The translations under genes and the position numbers were made by a program. This document shows, piece by piece, positions 5,449 to 17,313 of a DNA stretch of 32,000 bases. The notes beneath the pieces are model-generated. The model saw only the letters and a list, made by a program, of their open reading frames with translations. It was not told where the DNA came from and did no database searches. Numbering within the stretch: position 1 is the first letter of the stretch; each line of letters opens with the position of its first letter. Source of the DNA: Bellilinea caldifistulae (GTDB taxonomy: Bacteria > Chloroflexota > Anaerolineae > Anaerolineales > Anaerolineaceae); contig NZ_LGHJ01000021.1 of the NCBI RefSeq assembly GCF_001306055.1, forward strand, positions 1 to 32,000, in the 5' to 3' direction.

Positions 5449-6801
5449 TTACTGTTTTAATCCCCATTCTTTAAAAAAGGTTCCCAGATCCCGCAGTGAA
5501 CGTTCAACATGCGCTTGAGCGCGCGCCCGTTTACCTTTGACCGGTTCTGGCAGTTCGGGGAGGATACCAAAATTCGCTTTCATCGGCTGGAAGTCTTTCA
5601 TCGAAGCGTGGGTGACATAATGACACAACGCACCCAGCATGGTCGTCTGCGGCATGATCAACGTTGGCTGACCTTTTGCCAGTCTGGCAGCATTGATACC
5701 AGCCAGCAATCCGGTCGCGATATTCCCCATATAACCCTCTACACCCGTAATTTGGCCAGCAAATAAAAGGGTTTCCCGTTGACGAGCCTGTAGAGAAGGT
5801 TGAAGTAGAAGCGGCGATGCAATAAAAGTATTGCGGTGCATTTGACCGTAGCGGACAAATTCGGCGTTTTGCAAACCGGGAATCATACGGAATACCCGTT
5901 TTTGTTCAGGGAAAGTCAGATTGGTTTGGAATCCGACCAGATTGTAAAGCGTACCGGCCAGATTATCCTGGCGCAGTTGAACAACAGCAAAGGGGCGTTT
6001 ACCGGTACGCGGGTCTTTCAAACCCACCGGGCGCATCGGACCATACGCCAGGGCCAGATCACCCCGTTGAGCAAGAATTTCGACCGGCAGACACCCCTCG
6101 AAGAAGTGATCCATTCCGGCGCGAACGCCTGCTTCAATTTCCTTTTCGAACTCACGCAGTGCAATGCGTTGAGCGTTGCGCAACGCCTGAACAAATGCGA
6201 AATACTCATCGCGAGACATGGGGCAATTGATATAATCCCCCTCCTGGTCCTCGCCAATTCCGTAGCGCGAGGCTTTGAAAGCAATCGAGAAGTCAATTGA
6301 GTCTACATGCACAATTGGGGCAATTGCGTCGTAAAAATAAAGGCGGTTTTCTCCACTGAGGTTTTGAATCGCCTCTGCCAGTGCAGGTGAGGTGAGTGGG
6401 CCGCTGGCAACAATGACAATGCCATCGGGAATGTCTTTGACTTCCTGGCGGATGAGATGAATACGGGAATGATTGGCGATCCGTTCGGTGACCATTTTGG
6501 AAAAAGCCTCACGATCAACGGCTAACGCACCACCGGCAGGTAAGGCAGTGGCTTCGGCACATTGAAGCAGCAAAGACCCAAAACGGCGGATTTCTTCTTT
6601 GAGCAAGCCGGAAGCGCGGTCAATTAAGGAAGAGCCGAGTGAGTTGGAGCAAACCAGTTCAGCAAGGAGGCCGCTGACATGCGCACCAGTTTGAATTTCC
6701 GGGCGCATTTCGTATAGAAATACCTCACAGCCCAACTCGGCTGCCTGCCAGGCTGCTTCACTGCCAGCCAAACCGCCACCAATCACGGTAATTTGCTTCA
6801 T
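5449..6801 (-). CDS. trmFO: methylenetetrahydrofolate--tRNA-(uracil-5-)-methyltransferase TrmFO
   Basis: Start reassigned to [21 protein letters not shown] (FAD GxGxxG fold), with the ATG complement at 6799-6801. TrmFO/Gid-like sequence throughout. Confidence 0.9.
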
Positions 6802-6848
6802 TTTCCGTTTCCCAAAGCAAATTCTACCACGCTTGGGGTAAATTGCCC

Positions 6849-6888
6849 TGGCATAAAACTTGCACCATTTGCTGATGATCAGTATACT
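6849..6888 (+). promoter_or_regulatory. overlapping sigma54-like (-24/-12) and sigma70-like promoter elements upstream of rpoN
   Basis: TGGCAT (6849-6854), AAAAC, TTGCA (6860-6864), with the canonical GG-to-GC offset of 12. The same TTGCAC (6860-6865) lies 17 nt from TATACT (6883-6888). The element sits in the 111-nt trmFO/rpoN divergent region, 49 nt before the rpoN ATG. Confidence 0.5.
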
Positions 6889-6912
6889 TTTTTGAGGGAG
6901 CAGGTTGAAAAC

Positions 6913-8313
6913 ATGTTTCAAATCCAGAGTCCCAGTATCCGCACGGTAACTACCGCTCATTTAACCCAGACCATGACCCTCCTGAACCAGACGGTGGGAG
7001 AGTTATATCAGCAAATTCAACAGGAGTTGACCAACCCCGCCCTGGAGCTGGTAGAAGAACGCCGCTGTCCGACCTGTCATCGGGTGCTGCCGGGGCATGG
7101 TGAATGTCCGGTGTGCAGCCGCCCGGTCAGTATGCAGGCGGAAGAACCAGTTGTTTTTGTTTCGCCACGTGAGGATTTTTACTCTTCCGGTGGCTCGAGT
7201 GCGGATTTGATCCCCGATGAACCTGTTTCACCCATTGTGGAAGAGTTGCCCGTCTTCATTTTGCGTCAAATTGCGGTTGAGCTGGAGGGAGAAGAACGAC
7301 GGATTGCCGCCTTTTTCCTGACTCATCTGGATGAGGACGGGTTCTTGACCATTGCACCGGTTGAAATTGCCCAGTATTTTCATGTCCCGCTTTCAAAAGT
7401 GCTGCGTATTAAGCAACTCATCCAGCGCGCCGAACCTGTTGGGGTGGGGTCGGCCAATCCACAGGAAGCTTTGCTGGTTCAACTGGATGTCCTAAATGAA
7501 ACCAAGCCTACTCCTGAGTTAGCCCGGCACATCATTGCTGAGGCGATGGATTTGCTCACCCACCGTCAATACGCGGAAATTGCCCGCAAATTGAATGTTT
7601 CTTATCATCAAGTTCAGGAGACGGTGCGTTTCATTGGTGAAAACCTGAATCCTTTTCCGGCGCGAGCCCATTGGGGGGATGTGAGAAACCCCTCACCGAA
7701 AGCGGGAGAAGTCTATTACCATCCGGATATCATCATCAGTTACCTGAATAATTCTCCAGAAAACCCCCTGGTGGTTGAAATTATCTTGCCGATACGCGGA
7801 TATCTGAGGGTCAACCCTCTATTTCGGCAAGCGGCGCGGATTGCCAGTGAAGAAACCCGGATTGGAATGAAAAATGATCTGGAACGGGCAGCATTATTTG
7901 TCAAATGCTTACAGCAGAGGAACTTTACCATGCAGCGCTTAATGCAGCGGGTGGTCAGTATTCAACGAGATTTCATCTTGCGCGGTGACCGCTATATTAA
8001 ACCGTTGACCCGCGCTTCTCTGGCGGAGGAGCTGGGTGTTCATGAGTCGACCATTTCGCGGGCGGTTTCTAACAAAACAGTTCAATTGCCCAACAAGAAA
8101 ATCATTCCCCTAGCGAATTTCTTTGACCGCAGTCTGAATGTGCGGACGGCATTGCGGGAGATTATCTCAAGGGAAAAAAATCCTCTCAGTGATTCTCAAC
8201 TGGCGCGTTTGCTCGCCCAACAAGGTTATGAAGTTGCCCGGCGAACGGTGGCAAAATATCGGGCAATGGAGGGTATCCTCCCCGCCCACTTACGCAGAGT
8301 TAATCAGGTTTAG
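6913..8313 (+). CDS. rpoN: RNA polymerase sigma-54 factor with a Cys4 insertion in Region II
   Basis: Start reassigned to MFQIQSP (ATG 6913). Region I-like [45 protein letters not shown]. RpoN box ARRTVAKYR near the C-terminus. Confidence 0.9.
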
Positions 8314-8315
8314 AT

Positions 8316-10271
8316 ATGAGAGATGTAATCAGTCGTCCGATTCAGGCGTTATTTGGTAACAAAATTAATAAGATTGAACCCTATTCAGCCATTCAAAATT
8401 TACTGGAATTGATTGCAGAACCGGCGCTGGTGTATGATCCAGAGGGCAACCGAGTCCTTCTGGCGAACAGCGCATTTTTGGTGCTTTCTGCTTATTCCCA
8501 GCAGGAAGTCATAAATGAAAATTTAGAGAATTTATTGGAAAATCCCAGCCTCGAAGAAATCTTGAAAGAGGATAGCACTACGGGATTGTTGAGAACCCGT
8601 AATCGCTTGAGCATCCCGGTAGAAATTCGCAAAGGTGTGTTGGATCAACAAACCGGCTACGTCGTATTGAGGGTTATTTCCCAAATGACTTTGCAATATC
8701 TGAGCGGCAACTGGCAAAAGCGACTATTAACCACATTTCAGATGATTCCACGGTTTGTGGAGAATTCGTCTGGAGAATGGATGGAGACCGTTCAGCATTT
8801 GCTGGATGTGTTAAAGGGACTTTTTGAAACCAATCTGATCTGTATTTACCACGCCAGCGCCGATTTTCCCGAATTGCGCAAGCTGATCAGTCTCGAAGAG
8901 TTGACATTATTCCCCGATACCTTGCCGTCCAGCGATTTGATCCGCCTGTCGTTGCCCGTGTTGTGGACTCCGGGGAAGCGGATGACCACTCATTTACATC
9001 GTTCAGCAAGGATTGCGGGTGTCACTTATGTTGCCAGTGTTGCCATCGGTAGAGAAAATGCCTTGGAAGGTTTGCTTGTTGTGGGAGGTATGGAATCTCA
9101 GCCACCACCTTTATTATTAGAGACCATTGAAGTGCTGGCGGTTTATGTTTCTCAAGTCATCAGCCGTTCTGTTCTGGAAGAAAACATTAGAAGAGAAGCA
9201 GCGCGGAGGGAGTTTCAACTTCAGTTGTATGGGGCGGTTTATGAAGAAGTTCAAGAAGGGGTTGTGGTTGTTGACCCGGACTCGGTGATTATCGAAATCA
9301 ATCCCGCTGCAGAATTATTATTCGGTTATACGCGGAATGAGGTTCGGGGGGAGCGGATTGAAAATATTTTGATCACCCCTGATCGCTTTCTGCCAGCGCT
9401 TGCCAATGTGATGACAACGAAGACTTCGTCCCTGCTGGAAAACATCACTTTACACCGCCGAAACGGGCAAACCTTTGCAGCAGATGTGAAAATTTTACCG
9501 ATCCAGCACTATGGCGATCTGTCTGGAGTAGTCCTTCTGGTACGGGATATCAGCGAGCATGAGCAAATTCTGGCGCAATCCCGCCAGTTGGAACAACGCG
9601 CATTTCTCGGCGAGTTTATGGGTGTTTTTGCCCATGAAGTTCTCAACCCAATCAACAATATTTCTACCGGCTTACAAATTCTTTCCCGCCGGCTAGCCAG
9701 CGAAAATTCTTTACAGGAACTGGTTAGCCGTATGGAGAATGATTGTGAACGCTTGCACCACCAGATGGAAGCACTGAAAACCTATGCCAAGCCTTATGAA
9801 CCCAAGCAAGAAATGGTGGACGTCCCCCAATTGCTGAATCGCATTCTGGAGCGCTGGCGGCCGCGTATGGAAAGATTGAACGTACACCATGTGTTTCAAT
9901 CGGCGGAAAAACTACCACCTGTAAAAGGCGATTGGCGGGCACTTGATCAGGTTTTCAACAATCTCATCAGTAATGCGATTGATGCCATGAGAGAGAATGG
10001 CGGGGTCTTAAGCGTGAAAGTCAGCCTTTCAACGCTGGTATCTCCGCACCCGCATTTGGAAATTGCGGTGTCAGATAACGGGCCAGGAATCCCGGATGAT
10101 ATTCGAGAAAGGATCTTTGAGCCTTTTGTGACAACCAAAGCCAGCGGTACTGGCTTGGGCCTGTCTATCACAAAAAGGATCGTTACTGCCCATCGAGGGA
10201 GCATTACATTCAATAGTTACCCGGGCGGAACTGTATTCCGTATCTTTCTACCTGCCAGCGAGGAATCCTGA
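8316..10271 (+). CDS. soluble PAS-GAF-PAS sensor histidine kinase (NtrB-like)
   Basis: PAS segment ([30 protein letters not shown]...HRRNGQTF). H-box [13 protein letters not shown]-box [11 protein letters not shown]1 DNGPGIP, G2 GTGLGLSI. No TM segments. Starts 2 nt after the rpoN stop. Confidence 0.9.
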
Positions 10272-10273
10272 TT

Positions 10274-11449
10274 ATGTCCATAACCATCCTTGTAGTTGAT
10301 GATGAAGCCAATCTCAGAAAAAACATCTCAGATTACTTAACCCCGCTGGGTTATGAAGTAATTGGTGTGCCGACTCTCAGTGATGCTCGTACATGCCTGC
10401 AGCGTGGCAACGGGGATGTGGTTCTTCTGGATGTCTCACTGCCTGACGGCTACGGGCCGAGTTTGTTGTATGAAATGCAAAATATGCCTTATCGGCCACC
10501 GATGATCATCATCACTGCTCATGGCGATATAGAAATGGCAGTGGACGCCATGAAGAATGGCGCCCATGACTTTTTGACCAAACCGATTCAATTGACCCAA
10601 TTGGAAAATTCTATTTTGAGAGCTTGCGAAATCGTGCAAATGCGGAGGGAACTGGCTCATTTACGGCAAAGCCAGAAACAAAGTATTTCCTTTGTAGTGG
10701 GTAAAACCCATTCCATGGAATCGTTGCTCAGTCAGGCGCAGAAAGCCGCGCAGGCTCAGGTCTCAGTATTGATTACTGGCGAAACCGGCTCAGGGAAAGA
10801 AGTGCTTGCCCGGTTCATCCACAGCACAGGGCCGCGTTCGAACAAGCCGTTTATTGCGATTAATTGCGCAGCAATTCAACCCACCGTACTTGAATCGGAA
10901 TTGTTCGGCTACGAGGCAGGTGCATTTACCAGCGCGGAACGGCGTAAAAACGGTTTAATGGAAGTAGCCGATGGCGGCATCCTGTTTCTGGATGAGATTT
11001 CCTCTATGCCGTTGGATATTCAGGCCAAGTTGCTGAGAGCGATTGAGGAACATGCGTTTCGGCGGGTAGGCGGAACGAACTTAATTCAAGTGGATGTTCA
11101 AGTGCTGGCAGCTTCCAATCGCAACTTGAAAGAGATGATACAAGAAGGCAGTTTCCGGCAGGATTTATATTACCGCCTGAAGGTGGTGGACTTGCACCTG
11201 CCGCCCCTCCGCGAAAGAAAGATGGATATTCCTGAACTGGTGGGCTTCTTCATCCGGCAATACAAAGCCAAACTGGGGGTAAATGTGGACGATATTACTC
11301 CACGGGCAATGCAGGCTCTGATGGAGTATGATTGGCCGGGAAATATTCGCGAATTAAGCCATGCCATTGAGCGTGCCATGCTCTTTTGTGAGGGTCGGGC
11401 AATTGATTTACCGGACTTACCGGCGGATATAGCCCATCTGAACGGTTAG
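10274..11449 (+). CDS. sigma54-dependent response regulator (REC + AAA+), lacking a C-terminal HTH
   Basis: REC domain (VVLLDVSLPDG, LTKP). Walker A GETGSGKE, Walker B ILFLDEI. GAFTSA loop at nt 10919-10936. Arginine-finger region FRQDLYYRL. The protein ends about 25 aa after NIREL, leaving no room for a Fis-type HTH. Confidence 0.9.
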   Translation: MSITILVVDDEANLRKNISDYLTPLGYEVIGVPTLSDARTCLQRGNGDVVLLDVSLPDGYGPSLLYEMQNMPYRPPMIIITAHGDIEMAVDAMKNGAHDFLTKPIQLTQLENSILRACEIVQMRRELAHLRQSQKQSISFVVGKTHSMESLLSQAQKAAQAQVSVLITGETGSGKEVLARFIHSTGPRSNKPFIAINCAAIQPTVLESELFGYEAGAFTSAERRKNGLMEVADGGILFLDEISSMPLDIQAKLLRAIEEHAFRRVGGTNLIQVDVQVLAASNRNLKEMIQEGSFRQDLYYRLKVVDLHLPPLRERKMDIPELVGFFIRQYKAKLGVNVDDITPRAMQALMEYDWPGNIRELSHAIERAMLFCEGRAIDLPDLPADIAHLNG

Positions 11450-11460
11450 GAAGCAGTTTC

Positions 11461-11476
11461 TGGCACATTTCTTGCA
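11461..11476 (+). promoter_or_regulatory. consensus sigma54 (-24/-12) promoter
   Basis: TGGCAC (11461-11466), ATTTC, TTGCA (11472-11476), an exact match to TGGCAC-N5-TTGCW. It starts 11 nt after the activator stop (11447-11449) and lies 38 nt before the ATG at 11514. Predicted TSS is near 11486-11488. Confidence 0.8.
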
Positions 11477-11513
11477 TCATATCCTTCCAGCAGAGATCTA
11501 TGGGAGGAAGGGT

Positions 11514-11843
11514 ATGATGATTTTCGAAATGACCAGAAACGACTTTTTGCTGACCACGGCTGGGGTGGCCTTATGCTTGGGTGTCATCATGTGGTTGATT
11601 GGCGTGATTGTGCTGGTCAGCCGGGTGCTGGGTGGAGAAATCAAGCGAATCGCAGAACAAACCGCCCGACTGGCTCAAAAGGGGATTGCTGAAGAAGTTG
11701 CCGGTCTGATTGGGAATGCTTCCGGACTGATCGAATCCCTCAATCAACTGGTGCGGACGGCAGCTGGCATAGGTGTATTTTTGATCATTGCCGGCATGTT
11801 GATGATAGCAGCAGCCTTTGGGCTTGCCTTTCAAATCCAGTAA
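11514..11843 (+). CDS. small 2-TM membrane protein (hypothetical), first gene of the sigma54-driven operon
   Basis: 109 aa from the ATG at 11514, preceded by GGGAGGAAGG (11502-11511). N-terminal TM (VALCLGVIMWLIGVIVLV), a central amphipathic helix region, and a C-terminal TM (GIGVFLIIAGMLMIAAAFGLAF). Confidence 0.6.
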   Translation: MMIFEMTRNDFLLTTAGVALCLGVIMWLIGVIVLVSRVLGGEIKRIAEQTARLAQKGIAEEVAGLIGNASGLIESLNQLVRTAAGIGVFLIIAGMLMIAAAFGLAFQIQ

Positions 11844-11886
11844 TTTGTTTTCCCTGCATTGCCCAAATTAAAAACAAGGAGTCCCT

Positions 11887-14800
11887 ATGCCATCCGCAGA
11901 CCTCCTGGAAGTATTGAAAACAAGTTTGGCGGTGGAAGATGTGCCGGTTGTGTTTTCAGCGTTGAAGAGAGACGCTCTCGTCTGGGACGCAGTCCAGATC
12001 AGCTCGAACATTGAAGGGTTGAGCAGCGGACAAACGGTCAAAGAAGACTGGCAGCCAGCCAATCTGGTTTTGAGGATCTTGAACAGCCGCATGGATATCG
12101 CTGCTTTACAAGGTGACCATTTCCCCTCGGTTGAGCCTTCCATACGAAAAAAGGCGCTGGAATCTTTTGAAAATTTGCTGCGCACCGCTTCAAAACCGCA
12201 AAATTTGCGAGAGGCTGGTTTGATTGCGCTGGCATTACGCGAGCGTCGGCGTAAGACTCAAACCTGGCTTGGATTGATGGATGAACTCAAATCCATTCAT
12301 TTGAAGAATAAAATTTTCCTCCTCGAATTATGGAAAACACCGCTTGTGTGTTTGTTCGGCCTGATTCCGGACCGGGAAGATTATTTGAAAGCACTTTTAA
12401 GCCAAGAGGATTTCGTTCTTTCAAAAGAGTGGATCACTCATATCTTGTTAGGCAACCCATTAGGTGAAGATGAAACAAAACGCCTGTTCATGCTGGTTTT
12501 GGCGGAAATCTCTCTTGCTTCTCAGGTTGAATGGCTGGTTTATCTTAAAGGTTGCGATGAACCTCAACTGGCCGGATGGCTGGCAAACCAAATATTACGC
12601 GAAGGTCGTCTGAAAACTGGCGGTTTGTCCGGCGTGGATTGGGATGCCTTGCGTCAAAAATCGTGGGCTGAATTGGCCGGTGAAGCCCTGGATCTGCAAT
12701 GGACGGCAACTCTGCATCAGATAGCAGGACATCCGGCTCAATCAGAATTGTTTTTGAGCCGTTCCAGAAATTTATTACAGCACTGGCTGGGTGGTACAAC
12801 CCTGCAATTGATTTCGGTGGTGAAGAATGATTCCAGAGCAACCGAAACATTATGGGACGAGATTGAGCCTTTGCTCAGCACTCAACCCTTACCCGAAACA
12901 TTGATGGAGGAAGCTGTTTGGGTTAAACCACCTGTTTCTCTCATGCGGCGATTAAGCGAATTTAATCTGCCTGGATTGGTTCAGGTATTTGCAAAAGGAA
13001 GCGAAGCAGCGATTGGAGAGGAACACGAAAGCCGGGAAATTGTCAAAGAAGCCGTTTGGGAATGGTTAAAGCATCAACAGAACGAAGAAAAAATCCTTAG
13101 AGGACAATTTGTCTTTGAATATTCTCCTTTCGAATTATTGGCAATTTTAGAACACCTGAGTTTGTATCAGGAAGCCCTGGAAGTGGCCCAATTGTTCCTC
13201 AAGCGGCGTGTTAGAGATGTTTCTCTGATGACATGGACAGCTCGGCTTGCTCATCGTTTGGGTCAGGATGATATTGCAATCCGATTGATCCGCGAAGCCA
13301 TCTTATTGGAGGAAACCAATCCCCAACATTATCGGACTTACGCCAGAATGCTTGAGGATCGGAATGATTGGGAGTCGGCCTTGAAAATCCGTCAGGATAT
13401 CCTGAATCGTTTCGAAGATTCATCTTTAGAAGATCAGTTGAATCTGGTGACCTGTGCGATTGGAGGAAGGAATTACGATCTCGCGGTTCAAACCTGCCAG
13501 CAAATAATCGAACAGCATGGTGATCAGGGACAGGCTTATACCCTGTTAGGGTTGGCTCAGTTTGGAGAGGGAAAATTGGAAGAAGCCCAAACCAACCTGA
13601 CGAAAGCCACTCTTTTGATACCGGAAGAGCCCAAGCCATGGCTTGAATTAGCCCGATTGTACAAACACAACGGCGAGTCGCAAAGAGCGCTGGAAACCTT
13701 GAGGGCAGCTTTGTTGAATGTACCCGACTCGGCTGAATTACATCTTGCCATGGGAAGAGCATGTTTGGAAAATGGCCTATCGGCTGAAGCTTTACCCTAC
13801 TTAAAGCAGTCTGCCCGTTTAGCACCGGAGTCAGATGAAGTGGCATTGACCTTGATTAAGACCCTTGCTTCCCTTGGTCATGATAAGGAAGCCCTGGAAG
13901 TGGCAGAAAGAGCCCGACTGAAATGGCCGACTCATCCAGAATTGGCCTATGAACATGCGCGCATTTTGTTGCGGGATGGGGAGAGGAGCGAGGGTATTTC
14001 GATATTAGAAGTGGCACTTCAATTCGAAGGTGCGCGATTGGAATGGTTTGTGGAATATGCAAAAGTTCTTTTGAATGGTCTGGAATTGAGGCGGTTCTCC
14101 AGCGTGCCAGATTCGTCTGTTGGGATTTTAATCAAAGCCCAAAAAGCACTTCAGCGGGTTTTGAAGGAAGTACCCCATCATTTTGAAGCGCTCTTACTAA
14201 AATCGGAAATTCACTTGAATTTGCAGGAATGGGATCAGGCTTTGCCGGGATTCCAGCGATTGGTTGAATTTGAGCTGGCTGGTTCACCTGAGTGGCAATG
14301 GAGAATCCAATCCGGGCTTGGGGTTATTGCTTTTCATTCGGGTGAAAACGAAATGGCACTGGCAGCCCTGCAAAATGCCAGTCAGGCTTCCCCTGAAAAT
14401 TTGGATGTCAAGAAGCTGCTGGCAGAAGTGTACTTCCGTCTAAACCTTCTTGAATCATCCAAAGAAGTAGCTCAACAGGTGAGGAAGCTTCAGCCGAACA
14501 GCGTAGAGGGTTTAATTTGGTTTGCAAACTTAATGGAACGCTTGAATGAAATTCAACTCAGCATTGAAGCTTTTCAAACTCTTGTTCAACTGGTTCCTCA
14601 GGAAGTCGAGTATGCTTTGAATCTGGCTCGACTTTGGATGAAGAACGGTAATGATGAGGCAGCCGGTGAGGAATTGAAGCGATTGCTATCCCTGGAATAT
14701 ATCACGTCAGATCAATTGAAAAGGATGGCTGAGATAGCCCTGACAATCGGCGATTTGGAAGCAGCGAAGAAGGCTATTGACAAGGCGATTTTACTATCAC

Positions 14801-17313
14801 AGGAACCGGATTATTCCCTGCATTTCCACCTGGCTTTATTGCACTGGCGCAGTGGTGAGATTGAATCGGCTAATCATTCCCTGCAAACGGCTCTTACAAT
14901 AAATCCTAACGCAGCCGAGGCTTATATTTTCCAGAGCGAGTTGCAAAAATTAATGCAACGTCCCCAAGCAGCCATTGCCTCTTTGGAGAAGGCTTTACGA
15001 ATTTGTGAAAGTCAAGAGGGGAGAGGAGAAGCAATGGTGGATGACAAGGACAGTCAGGTGTGGGGGTACCAACCTGCAACCACCTTTACAGTTCACCGTC
15101 TGTTTGTTCCGGTATGCCTGGAAGCCGGTGAGTTAAATCTGGCTCTTTATCACGCCGAGAGCGCTTTGCAACTGTGTCCATCCTCACTGGAAATGGCTTA
15201 TCAGGTAGCCGATCTTGCCTACCGGCTGCTTCTTCCTGAACGGTTTAGCAAAATTACCACCGTGGTTGAGCAGAATCTTCCAATCGGTTGTTTTACCAGT
15301 TTCACCAGCGAGGAAGAAGCAGATTGGCTGGCTGGACTGCACGCTTTTCAGGCAGAAAGTCAAATTGAAAACGGAGATTTAATCGAAGCTGAGAAAATTA
15401 TTCAACGCGGATTGGCGCATAAACCGGATCATCTTCATCTCAGGACTGTTCGCATCCGATTAAATGCCAAACTGGGTAATTTTCCGGAAGCGCTTTCCGA
15501 GTTTCGCCAGGTATTTTTGAAGGTCCAGGAAGAAAAAAGTGCCGCGAACCACGAAAGGGGGTCTGCAGTCTTACGGACGCTGAGCGAAGCCGCCTTTGAT
15601 TTGATGGAGTGGCAGAATGGTATTCAGCTGGCAGAAAGAGTTTTGCAGGAGCACGAAAACGAACCGGCTGCCTATCTTTGTTATGCAAAGGGATTGATTC
15701 GGGCGCTGGAGTGGCAGCGGTTGAGTCAAATTCTGGGAATTGAAAACCACGCACTGAAGCCGGCTACCTCACTGACTATTCAGCGGCAAGCGAAGGAAAT
15801 GTTGGAAAAAGCAAGCCAGATGAGCCGCTCGCGCCTGTTGGATCATTGGGTGGCACGGGCAGAGGCATTGCTCCAGCCGGATTATCAACGTATTCAGGAT
15901 TTGAGCGCATTTGCTACCATAGACGAAGATTTTGCGTGGCTGGTTGAGATGCATCTGCGCACTAATAACCCGAGCGGTGCAATGCAAATGGCTGAAATCT
16001 GGCGACAGCACCCCTTTGTCCAAATGCTTTCAGCACTGCTTTGGGAGGATGAGGATGCCCCAAGAGCCCTTGATTACGCTCGTCATGCAGTTGAGCAGGC
16101 ACCTTTCCATCCGGTCTATCAAGCGGTACTGGCCCGAATGGCTGAAAAGAATCAGGATTATGCTCAGGCATTAGAAGCCATTGAGGTTGCGCTGGGGATT
16201 TGGGAGAACGAAATCATCTGGCAGATCAAGGCGGCGGATCTGGCTGAACGATGTGGTGAGATGGCATCTTGCCGTCATCATCTTGAAAAAGCCCTGCAAC
16301 TTAATCCAAATGATTACGATTTGCTCGTCCGGCTCGTGCAGCATTATTTGATGACCGGTTATTCTGATCACGCTGTGCAATTGCTGCAAAGTGTTGTCCA
16401 TTTATATGGCGAGCGCAGCGAAATCTGGCTGCTGATGGCTCTGGCATTACAGGGGTGTAATGACGATAAGGCTGCTTTGAGAGCTGCCGAAAAAGCCGTG
16501 GAATTGGACCACACCAATGGAAAGGCATGGATCACCGCTGGTAAAATTGCTCTACGAATGGGTGATGAAAACAAGGTGCTGTATTTTGCACGGCAGGCAG
16601 AAAAGGTTGCACCTGCGGATGCGGGCACCCGCTTGTTAGTGGTGAAAATCCTGATCCGTCAGGGGGAGTTGCGCGAGGCTCTAACCGAATTGAATCGGGC
16701 GATTGAAGAAATTCCCGGGCAATGGGAACTGGAGTTTGAGCGGGCAAGATTGGTTGGAGAATTACAAGGCGTGGCGGCAGCACAGGAATTGCTTCAGAGA
16801 TTGGTGGTGAATTACCCGCAAAATGAGCAGATTTTGTGGTTGTTTGCTCAAACCTGCATGAAAACCGGCAAAGTCAAACTGGCAGAGCAGAGCGGCTTGC
16901 AGGCATTGAAACTGAACCCGCAAAATGTGGAAATCCACCGGCTTTTGGCGGAAGTATTCAAAGATCAAGGGCAACTGGATCGAGCGGTGTTCCATCTTAG
17001 CGAAGCCATCCGGCTGCAACCAGCTCAGTTGGAAACCTATCTGAAACTGGGAGAAGTGTACACCACCCGTCGGGAATTCAGTAAAGCATTGGGGGTTTAC
17101 CAGCAGGCTATTCAAGTCAACCCAGAGGATTATCGCCCTTATTATTACTCGGCACTGGTTTTGCGGGATGGTAAAGATTATCCCGCGGCGGAGGTTATGC
17201 TAAGAAGGGCGGCTGAGTTAGCACCAGAGGATGTCAACATTCGCCGTCAGCTTGGTGCAATCATTGCACTGAATCTGGTTCATCACGGACAGGAGGCGAA
17301 AACATGCCTGTAA
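11887..17313 (+). CDS. giant tetratricopeptide-repeat (TPR) protein, 1808 aa
   Basis: Uninterrupted 5.4-kb ORF with RBS AAGGAG (11876-11881). Recurrent 34-aa TPR-like units run from about aa 450 to the C-terminus (e.g. AYTLLGLAQFGEGKLEEAQTNLTKATLLIPEEPKPW, YLKLGEVYTTRREFSKALGVYQQAIQVNPEDYRPY). No signal peptide. Confidence 0.85.
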   Translation: MPSADLLEVLKTSLAVEDVPVVFSALKRDALVWDAVQISSNIEGLSSGQTVKEDWQPANLVLRILNSRMDIAALQGDHFPSVEPSIRKKALESFENLLRTASKPQNLREAGLIALALRERRRKTQTWLGLMDELKSIHLKNKIFLLELWKTPLVCLFGLIPDREDYLKALLSQEDFVLSKEWITHILLGNPLGEDETKRLFMLVLAEISLASQVEWLVYLKGCDEPQLAGWLANQILREGRLKTGGLSGVDWDALRQKSWAELAGEALDLQWTATLHQIAGHPAQSELFLSRSRNLLQHWLGGTTLQLISVVKNDSRATETLWDEIEPLLSTQPLPETLMEEAVWVKPPVSLMRRLSEFNLPGLVQVFAKGSEAAIGEEHESREIVKEAVWEWLKHQQNEEKILRGQFVFEYSPFELLAILEHLSLYQEALEVAQLFLKRRVRDVSLMTWTARLAHRLGQDDIAIRLIREAILLEETNPQHYRTYARMLEDRNDWESALKIRQDILNRFEDSSLEDQLNLVTCAIGGRNYDLAVQTCQQIIEQHGDQGQAYTLLGLAQFGEGKLEEAQTNLTKATLLIPEEPKPWLELARLYKHNGESQRALETLRAALLNVPDSAELHLAMGRACLENGLSAEALPYLKQSARLAPESDEVALTLIKTLASLGHDKEALEVAERARLKWPTHPELAYEHARILLRDGERSEGISILEVALQFEGARLEWFVEYAKVLLNGLELRRFSSVPDSSVGILIKAQKALQRVLKEVPHHFEALLLKSEIHLNLQEWDQALPGFQRLVEFELAGSPEWQWRIQSGLGVIAFHSGENEMALAALQNASQASPENLDVKKLLAEVYFRLNLLESSKEVAQQVRKLQPNSVEGLIWFANLMERLNEIQLSIEAFQTLVQLVPQEVEYALNLARLWMKNGNDEAAGEELKRLLSLEYITSDQLKRMAEIALTIGDLEAAKKAIDKAILLSQEPDYSLHFHLALLHWRSGEIESANHSLQTALTINPNAAEAYIFQSELQKLMQRPQAAIASLEKALRICESQEGRGEAMVDDKDSQVWGYQPATTFTVHRLFVPVCLEAGELNLALYHAESALQLCPSSLEMAYQVADLAYRLLLPERFSKITTVVEQNLPIGCFTSFTSEEEADWLAGLHAFQAESQIENGDLIEAEKIIQRGLAHKPDHLHLRTVRIRLNAKLGNFPEALSEFRQVFLKVQEEKSAANHERGSAVLRTLSEAAFDLMEWQNGIQLAERVLQEHENEPAAYLCYAKGLIRALEWQRLSQILGIENHALKPATSLTIQRQAKEMLEKASQMSRSRLLDHWVARAEALLQPDYQRIQDLSAFATIDEDFAWLVEMHLRTNNPSGAMQMAEIWRQHPFVQMLSALLWEDEDAPRALDYARHAVEQAPFHPVYQAVLARMAEKNQDYAQALEAIEVALGIWENEIIWQIKAADLAERCGEMASCRHHLEKALQLNPNDYDLLVRLVQHYLMTGYSDHAVQLLQSVVHLYGERSEIWLLMALALQGCNDDKAALRAAEKAVELDHTNGKAWITAGKIALRMGDENKVLYFARQAEKVAPADAGTRLLVVKILIRQGELREALTELNRAIEEIPGQWELEFERARLVGELQGVAAAQELLQRLVVNYPQNEQILWLFAQTCMKTGKVKLAEQSGLQALKLNPQNVEIHRLLAEVFKDQGQLDRAVFHLSEAIRLQPAQLETYLKLGEVYTTRREFSKALGVYQQAIQVNPEDYRPYYYSALVLRDGKDYPAAEVMLRRAAELAPEDVNIRRQLGAIIALNLVHHGQEAKTCL

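Follow-up and report, generated by a model that had tools for sequence, protein, structure and literature searches.

A candidate dual-sigma promoter in front of rpoN conserved across the Anaerolineaceae

Promoters at which sigma-54 and sigma-70 recognition overlaps are already known, as is the action of sigma-54 on its own gene, rpoN. Negative autoregulation is found for B. japonicum rpoN2, R. etli rpoN1 and P. putida rpoN, and positive regulation for R. capsulatus nifR4. Helicobacter FlgR is a sigma-54 activator that lacks a DNA-binding domain. At glmY, sigma-54 binding represses the sigma-70 promoter that overlaps its site (in Salmonella the repression is complete), and the activated enhancer-binding protein switches the sigma-54 promoter on (PMC3045617). 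In Vibrio parahaemolyticus, loss of RpoN de-represses the overlapping sigma-70 promoter of qrr2 (bioRxiv 10.1101/2021.07.01.450815), and sigma-54 occludes an overlapping sigma-70 promoter at E. coli crl (Zafar 2014 as cited in PMC4591121). R. leguminosarum rpoN is reported to be negatively autoregulated, and R. etli prxS-rpoN2 to be activated by NifA, i.e. positively (PMC3538637). In Bacilli, Clostridia, Planctomycetia and Proteobacteria, predicted sigma-54 promoters precede rpoN (PMC12316311), and Chlamydia CtcC, the partner of the CtcB kinase, is also an activator without a DNA-binding domain (PMC7482065). Here we examine the promoter region of rpoN in Bellilinea caldifistulae, using the first 32,000 nucleotides (nt) of contig NZ_LGHJ01000021.1 (forward strand; hereafter the window), where a sigma-54 -24/-12 element shares five bases with the -35 hexamer of a sigma-70-type promoter. 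We consider the chances slightly better than even that this is a dual-sigma composite promoter combining basal housekeeping transcription, occlusion by sigma-54 and positive feedback fired by an activator.

The elements of this region are as follows.

6849-6864, plus strand: sigma-54 -24/-12 element TGGCATAAAACTTGCA, with GG at 6850-6851 and GC at 6862-6863
6853-6859, plus strand: A-rich spacer ATAAAAC inside the sigma-54 site, with A-richness conserved only at the rpoN site
6860-6865, plus strand: -35-like hexamer TTGCAC, its TTGCA common to the sigma-54 -12 element
6866-6882: spacer of 17 nt between TTGCAC and TATACT
6883-6888, plus strand: -10-like hexamer TATACT, recognized from the sequence and from its presence in 77 of 81 loci

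The sigma-54 element departs from TGGCAC-N5-TTGCW by a single C to T mismatch, and its GG and GC doublets are exactly 10 nt apart, which is the canonical spacing. TTGCA belongs both to the sigma-54 core and to the sigma-70 hexamer, i.e. the two overlap physically. TTGCAC and TATACT have the form TTGnnn/TAnnnT, and the 17 nt between them lie within the range of 16-18 nt. The intergenic gap (6802-6912, 111 nt) separates the divergent trmFO on the minus strand from rpoN, whose ATG is at 6913. The sigma-54 site is on the correct strand 49 nt upstream of this ATG, and rpoN and an activator are encoded in one operon. Transcription is predicted to start near 6875 from the sigma-54 site and near 6895 from the sigma-70-type promoter. 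In sequence and coordinates, both the sigma-54 element with its lone departure and exact doublet spacing and the TTGCAC-17-TATACT pair inside the 111-nt gap are exactly as described in the original prediction, an earlier reading of the same DNA.

That reading also held coincidence to be unlikely. The count in the window is weak evidence for this, as 2 sites with at most one mismatch were found versus 1.83 expected, which is not significant. The chance of a site in this gap and on this strand is p ~0.003. The decisive evidence is the comparison across genomes. RpoN relatives in the Anaerolineaceae number in the hundreds (Bellilinea, Leptolinea, Levilinea, Longilinea and others). The comparative set consisted of 80 species-level Anaerolineaceae loci with RpoN 58-96% identical to that of the window, which brings the total to 81; the most distant pairs of RpoN are 53% identical, and clustering at 70% identity gives 27 clusters. 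These loci are stretches of 13 kb that amount to ~1.0 Mb, and both strands were scanned. Among the 157 sites with at most one mismatch, 68 are located upstream of rpoN (30-120 nt) and 67 directly follow the activator gene, which leaves 22 at other positions. The chance expectation upstream of rpoN is ~0.08 sites.

Conservation of the motif upstream of rpoN in relatives had been proposed as a check, and it was found in all 81 loci as well as in at least 51 metagenome loci. The block has the form [T/C/G]GG[C/T]A[T/C]-N5-TTGCA(N)-spacer-TATACT in every one of the 81. A sigma-54 site with at most two mismatches is always present and its GG and TTGCA are invariant; 67 of the rpoN-upstream sites are within one mismatch of the consensus, and the remainder are TGGTAT or GGGCAT variants that retain GG and TTGCA. 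The -35-like hexamer is TTGCAA, TTGCAC or TTGCAT in 80/81 loci, and the -10-like hexamer is TATACT in 77, TATAAT in three and TAAACT in one. The two are separated by 17 nt in 78 loci and by 16 nt in three. TGGCA, AACTTGCA.C and TATACT are the only parts of the alignment with high column information; the flanks and the 13 columns in the centre of the spacer have ~0 bits, also when each 70% cluster is represented by one sequence. Additionally, metagenome contigs were scanned for the exact composite TGGCAY-N5-TTGCA-N18-TATACT, a search that is unbiased as to gene context and gave at least 120 matches. Among the matches listed, 51 of 120 are directly upstream of an rpoN orthologue (48-95% identity), and these include a clade at ~50% identity that is outside the genome set. 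Several further matches are accompanied by truncated open reading frames (ORFs) beginning MFQ or MLQ.

The observation is real, and both halves of the promoter appear to be under selection. TGGCA is 11 nt upstream of the -35 hexamer, where it is useless to sigma-70, and TATACT would fall at +9 to +14 of the predicted sigma-54 start, where it is useless to sigma-54, which argues that both readers are being selected for. TATACT is not present at the second sigma-54 promoter of the locus (described below), so that conservation of the -10 hexamer is independent of the sigma-54 core. The bases at spacer positions 3 and 4 are A at 70/81 and 72/81 of the rpoN sites versus 23/72 and 36/72 at the second promoter; this A-richness may reflect a UP-like contact or a second constraint from the housekeeping enzyme. 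A TG extension of the -10 is found in 1/81 loci, and the promoter should therefore depend on the -35 TTG contained in the sigma-54 -12 element.

The distance from TATACT to the ATG ranges from 6 to 27 nt across the loci. It is 6 nt in locus L075 and 8 nt in L072 and L074, short enough for leaderless transcripts, and this independently supports TATACT as a -10 element. The same distances speak against the preference for a sigma-54 start over a sigma-70 start that had been expressed earlier. That preference had been based on a Shine-Dalgarno (SD) sequence that was thought to remain in the leader only if transcription began at the sigma-54 start. The argument falls away when the relatives are considered: their G-rich SD is 4-8 nt before the ATG, and the equivalent in the window is AGGTTGA at 6902-6908, which is downstream of both predicted starts, so neither start removes it.

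In L066 (about 5920-5955), L069 and L070 a further full sigma-54 motif stands in tandem with the first, 17 nt upstream of it (e.g. TGGTACGAAACTTGCA-T-TGGCATATTACTTGCA). Only the downstream copy is correctly spaced from the -10, and the tandem motifs argue that sigma-54 occupancy is the selected property. L022 and L025 are two contigs of one metagenome-assembled genome (CAYNJT01, 'uncultured Leptolinea sp.'), each with a full trmFO-rpoN locus, and this duplication is more probably due to a mixed bin than to genuine paralogues. The same composite is also found in unrelated metagenome contigs upstream of a gene for a ~600-amino-acid B12-binding radical SAM/DUF4080 protein with a TTG start (MRILLVALNAKYVH...). 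This family has 11 members among the matches listed, L095 (10052-10091), L106, L107, L112, L114, L118, L162, L166, L188, L194 and L196, and may be a second family of dual-sigma promoters.

The genes around the promoter, together with the second sigma-54 promoter, are listed below.

5449-6801, minus strand: trmFO (NCBIfam TrmFO, 633 bits)
6821-6829, minus strand: extended -10 TGGTAGAAT belonging to the divergent trmFO/M28 operon and lying back-to-back with the rpoN promoter
6913-8313, plus strand: rpoN, encoding sigma-54 of 466 amino acids (Pfam Sigma54_CBD and Sigma54_DBD; TIGR02395, 255 bits)
8316-10271, plus strand: PAS histidine kinase (Pfam PAS, HisKA and HATPase_c), co-operonic with rpoN
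10274-11449, plus strand: sigma-54 activator of 391 amino acids with REC, AAA+ and lid domains (Pfam)
11461-11476, plus strand: perfect sigma-54 promoter TGGCACATTTCTTGCA, 11 nt after the activator stop, with a predicted start near 11487
11475-11519, plus strand: hairpin with its 5' arm at 11475-11488 and its 3' arm at 11506-11519
11514-11843, plus strand: small ORF of 109 amino acids without a family match, a presumed sigma-54 target
11887-17313, plus strand: TPR protein of 1808 amino acids, a presumed sigma-54 target, with a syntenic homologue in 68/80 loci

The order is conserved: an M28 peptidase gene and trmFO are divergent, followed by rpoN, the kinase, the activator, the second sigma-54 promoter, the small ORF and the giant TPR protein. 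The kinase is syntenic in 80/80 loci. The activator has no C-terminal DNA-binding domain of the helix-turn-helix (HTH) type, as Pfam yields only REC, Sigma54_activat and the AAA lid, and the NCBIfam NtrC/AtoC-type models (441-469 positions) match it only to position ~385-391. Its orthologues are all 388-397 amino acids long and lack the HTH in every species. The loop that contacts sigma-54 is GAFTGA in 38 orthologues and GAFTSA in 26. The RpoN box of the window protein is intact (ARRTVAKYR). A zinc-ribbon-like CxxC-X9-CxxC insert is present right after region I of RpoN (residues 52-68 in the window, 7066-7116) and in 81/81 orthologues; we know of no described sigma-54 with such an insert. This rpoN appears to be a single cassette copy rather than a second, symbiotic paralogue, and the likeness to sigma-54-dependent rpoN paralogues drawn by the original prediction is imperfect in this respect.

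The second sigma-54 promoter is found at the equivalent place in 72/74 loci (at most two mismatches), and the perfect TGGCACATTTCTTGCA in the window and in relatives demonstrates that the canonical sigma-54 consensus is in use in the clade. It is presumed to drive the small ORF and the giant TPR proteins. The presumed target region (11514-19985) also holds an 893-amino-acid protein with a weak TPR match, and alaS follows 25 nt further on. The hairpin begins within this promoter, with a 5' arm that spans -12 to +2 and a 3' arm in which the SD and the two ATGs of the small ORF lie. In the window the stem has 14 base pairs (-23.4 kcal/mol), and RNAs that start at 11486 or 11489 fold at -3.2 and -1.8 kcal/mol, which is weaker than most shuffles. 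An Alifold analysis of 29 loci kept the helix with compensatory changes in 5/9 pairs, and pairing in the hairpin was 89.6% versus 76% for shuffled sequences (0/500) and 38-56% for slid controls. The covarying outer pairs are upstream of any plausible sigma-54 start, and the hairpin is therefore possible only in read-through RNA from the rpoN operon. This suggests that the hairpin sequesters the SD and ATG and that translation is unmasked depending on the start site. The T-run after the hairpin was considered as the tail of an intrinsic terminator and this was set aside, because in most species these Ts are paired with 5'-arm As and SD/ATG sequestration is the better reading. A conserved C two nt after TTGCA in both classes of site was considered as a clade-specific sigma-54 contact and was likewise rejected; the downstream C pairs with the start-codon G in the hairpin.

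A hairpin that silences read-through RNA implies that the rpoN operon is transcribed while the targets must stay off, which points to transcription by the housekeeping enzyme. Together with the conservation of TATACT and the lack of a TG extension, we argue that this makes the sigma-70-type promoter the probable basal one.

In the composite-promoter reading, the housekeeping (sigma-70/SigA-type) promoter TTGCAC-17-TATACT would initiate near 6895 and provide basal levels of sigma-54, kinase and activator. Its -35 hexamer is the -12 element of the sigma-54 site, so the two holoenzymes would be mutually exclusive on the DNA. Sigma-54 holoenzyme would form a stable and silent closed complex that represses the housekeeping promoter while the activator is unphosphorylated, resulting in negative, homeostatic autoregulation. 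Lacking a DNA-binding domain, the activator would be expected to work from solution, with every sigma-54 closed complex as a potential target and that at rpoN among them, and once phosphorylated it would fire the bound sigma-54 holoenzyme from ~6875, resulting in positive feedback. The perfect promoter at 11461 would fire simultaneously. Growth was inhibited when RpoN was over-expressed in Geobacter sulfurreducens (PMC2725144), which provides a rationale for sigma-54 homeostasis. The original prediction had described a sigma-54 site fused to a sigma-70-type promoter and offered positive autoregulation and occlusion as two readings of it. The fusion, and the autoregulation that it implies, are upheld by the conservation of both halves; the two readings are inseparable by sequence, and it is probable that both are true, as at glmY. 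More tentatively, and with appreciable doubt, the family as a whole may use a two-layer sigma-54 switch, in which the composite promoter represses at rest and activates itself once the activator is phosphorylated, and the hairpin gates translation of the effectors by start site.

The alternative that survives best, although we regard it as unlikely, is that sigma-54 holoenzyme on 6849-6864 purely represses the housekeeping promoter and never fires. The conserved TATACT and 17-nt spacing, the dependence on the -35 hexamer and the leaderless ATG distance in L075 are all consistent with this, and there are precedents for pure occlusion by sigma-54 (qrr2, and references in PMC4591121) and for negative rpoN autoregulation (R. 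leguminosarum, PMC3538637). However, the activator without a DNA-binding domain should remodel any closed complex, this one included, and the site is as near to consensus as the genuine downstream promoter and carries no sequence mark of non-activatability.

It is a little less likely again that the two promoters are simply additive, the sigma-54 site being the inducible one and giving positive autoregulation, with competition of no regulatory significance. The near-consensus site is in the right orientation for this, and the operon itself encodes the kinase and activator. However, five bases are shared in 81/81 genomes, and co-occupancy is sterically impossible from what is generally known of footprint sizes. 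NifA-activated prxS-rpoN2 in R. etli (PMC3538637) and the sigma-54 promoters predicted upstream of rpoN in several classes (PMC12316311) offer parallels for an added promoter, but the overlapping arrangement at glmY yields measurable repression (PMC3045617).

Very improbable is a third explanation, in which TGGCA...TTGCA is not a sigma-54 site and is instead read by another protein or works in an ordinary sigma-70 promoter as its UP-like element. An internal spacer that is A-rich only here and the A/T block upstream would fit this, but GG and GC are invariant at exactly 10 nt, the TGGTAT and GGGCAT variants retain the sigma-54 core, the cassette's downstream promoter bears this motif too, the tandem copies are full, and the position is before the sigma-54 gene itself. 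A chance match in an AT-rich intergenic gap, for which the unremarkable count in the window could be cited, is refuted by the 68 sites versus ~0.08 expected, by the unconserved spacers and by the rpoN-enriched metagenome scan, and its probability is negligible.

Several points weigh against the composite-promoter reading itself. A sigma-70 promoter scan of 6500-7200 with thresholds of at least 4/6 matches per hexamer and at least 9/12 in total called no promoter; it missed the window promoter because this scores 8/12, with a -35 hexamer that matches TTGACA at only 3/6 positions and is therefore weak. The fixed non-consensus C of TATACT is not accounted for by a plain -10 role, and the window activator has GAFTSA instead of the canonical GAFTGA. 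The loci cover 13 kb each, and the genomes may hold other activators or sigma-54 promoters. Conservation of the overlap could reflect inheritance and the constraint of a shared hexamer instead of selection for competition. Finally, every functional step, from sigma-54 binding and mutual exclusion to both start sites and the sign of regulation, is inferred from sequence.

The region upstream of the composite contains the promoter of the divergent trmFO/M28 operon. The reverse-complement motif ATTnTAnCA of its extended -10 is found in 55/81 loci, in 42 of these 18-20 nt upstream of TGGCA, versus a chance expectation of 0.005 per locus. Unlike TATACT with its kept C (77/81), this promoter varies its third base freely. 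Sigma-54 holoenzyme might also interfere with it. A role for TGGCAT as the -35 of the divergent promoter was rejected, as this promoter has an extended -10 and there is no conservation where its -35 would be expected (AGGGCA). No conserved repeat that could be an enhancer (upstream activator sequence) was found upstream of the sigma-54 site, where only the A/T block and the divergent extended -10 are conserved. This is expected for an activator without a DNA-binding domain, and an enhancer is not obligatory in the family (CtcC). The rpoN leader has no structure beyond that of shuffles from either start (z = 0.5 and -0.8), and an RNA role for TATACT was dropped on these grounds. Rfam at a permissive threshold gave zero matches in 6000-12500.

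Our search found no literature on sigma-54 biology in the Chloroflexota, and the phylum has 0 mentions in PMC12316311. Within the accessible literature, what is new is an unusually well-conserved candidate dual-sigma rpoN promoter in a phylum with essentially unexplored sigma-54 biology. Its own features are the hexamer shared between -12 and -35, the self-contained cassette with an activator that has no DNA-binding domain and the coupled read-through hairpin. The locus may represent a sigma-54 module that is minimal and complete in itself, made up of the sigma factor, a single kinase and activator, two sigma-54 sites and a small number of targets, with a cis logic that is fixed in more than 80 species. 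It would extend the glmY-type dual-sigma design well beyond the enterobacteria, a point left open by the glmY authors (PMC3045617), and apply it to the gene of the sigma factor itself. As such it could be a simple model for how a potentially toxic alternative sigma factor is held at a set level and yet amplified on demand. It could also provide promoter and insulator parts for the Anaerolineae, abundant filamentous bacteria of anaerobic digesters that lack genetic tools.

Compared with known systems, the rpoN cassette is like glmY and Salmonella glmZ (Enterobacteriaceae; Reichenbach 2009; Gopel 2011, PMC3045617) in that both promoter types are on one stretch of DNA with a two-component system encoded nearby. 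At glmY the promoters overlap perfectly and share a single start, whereas at rpoN the -12 element is the -35 hexamer and the predicted starts are ~20 nt apart. Upstream sites are bound by the glmY activator GlrR, and glmY encodes a small RNA, whereas the cassette activator has no DNA-binding domain and the target is rpoN itself. The sigma-70 half of glmY is retained only in some genera, whereas both halves of the rpoN promoter are present in 81/81 species. At qrr2 and crl a sigma-54 site likewise overlaps -35/-10 elements, but both systems are proteobacterial and regulate genes other than rpoN, without an autoregulatory loop. CtcC and FlgR share the REC and AAA+ architecture, the lack of an HTH and a paired kinase; to our knowledge, rpoN is not co-operonic with the kinase and activator in Chlamydia and Helicobacter. 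As in the autoregulated rpoN genes, sigma-54 would act on the promoter of its own gene, which is predicted here from the cis element alone. Those genes are usually found in an lptB-rpoN-hpf-ptsN context or as a symbiotic paralogue, whereas the Anaerolineaceae rpoN heads a cassette of rpoN, kinase, activator and target.

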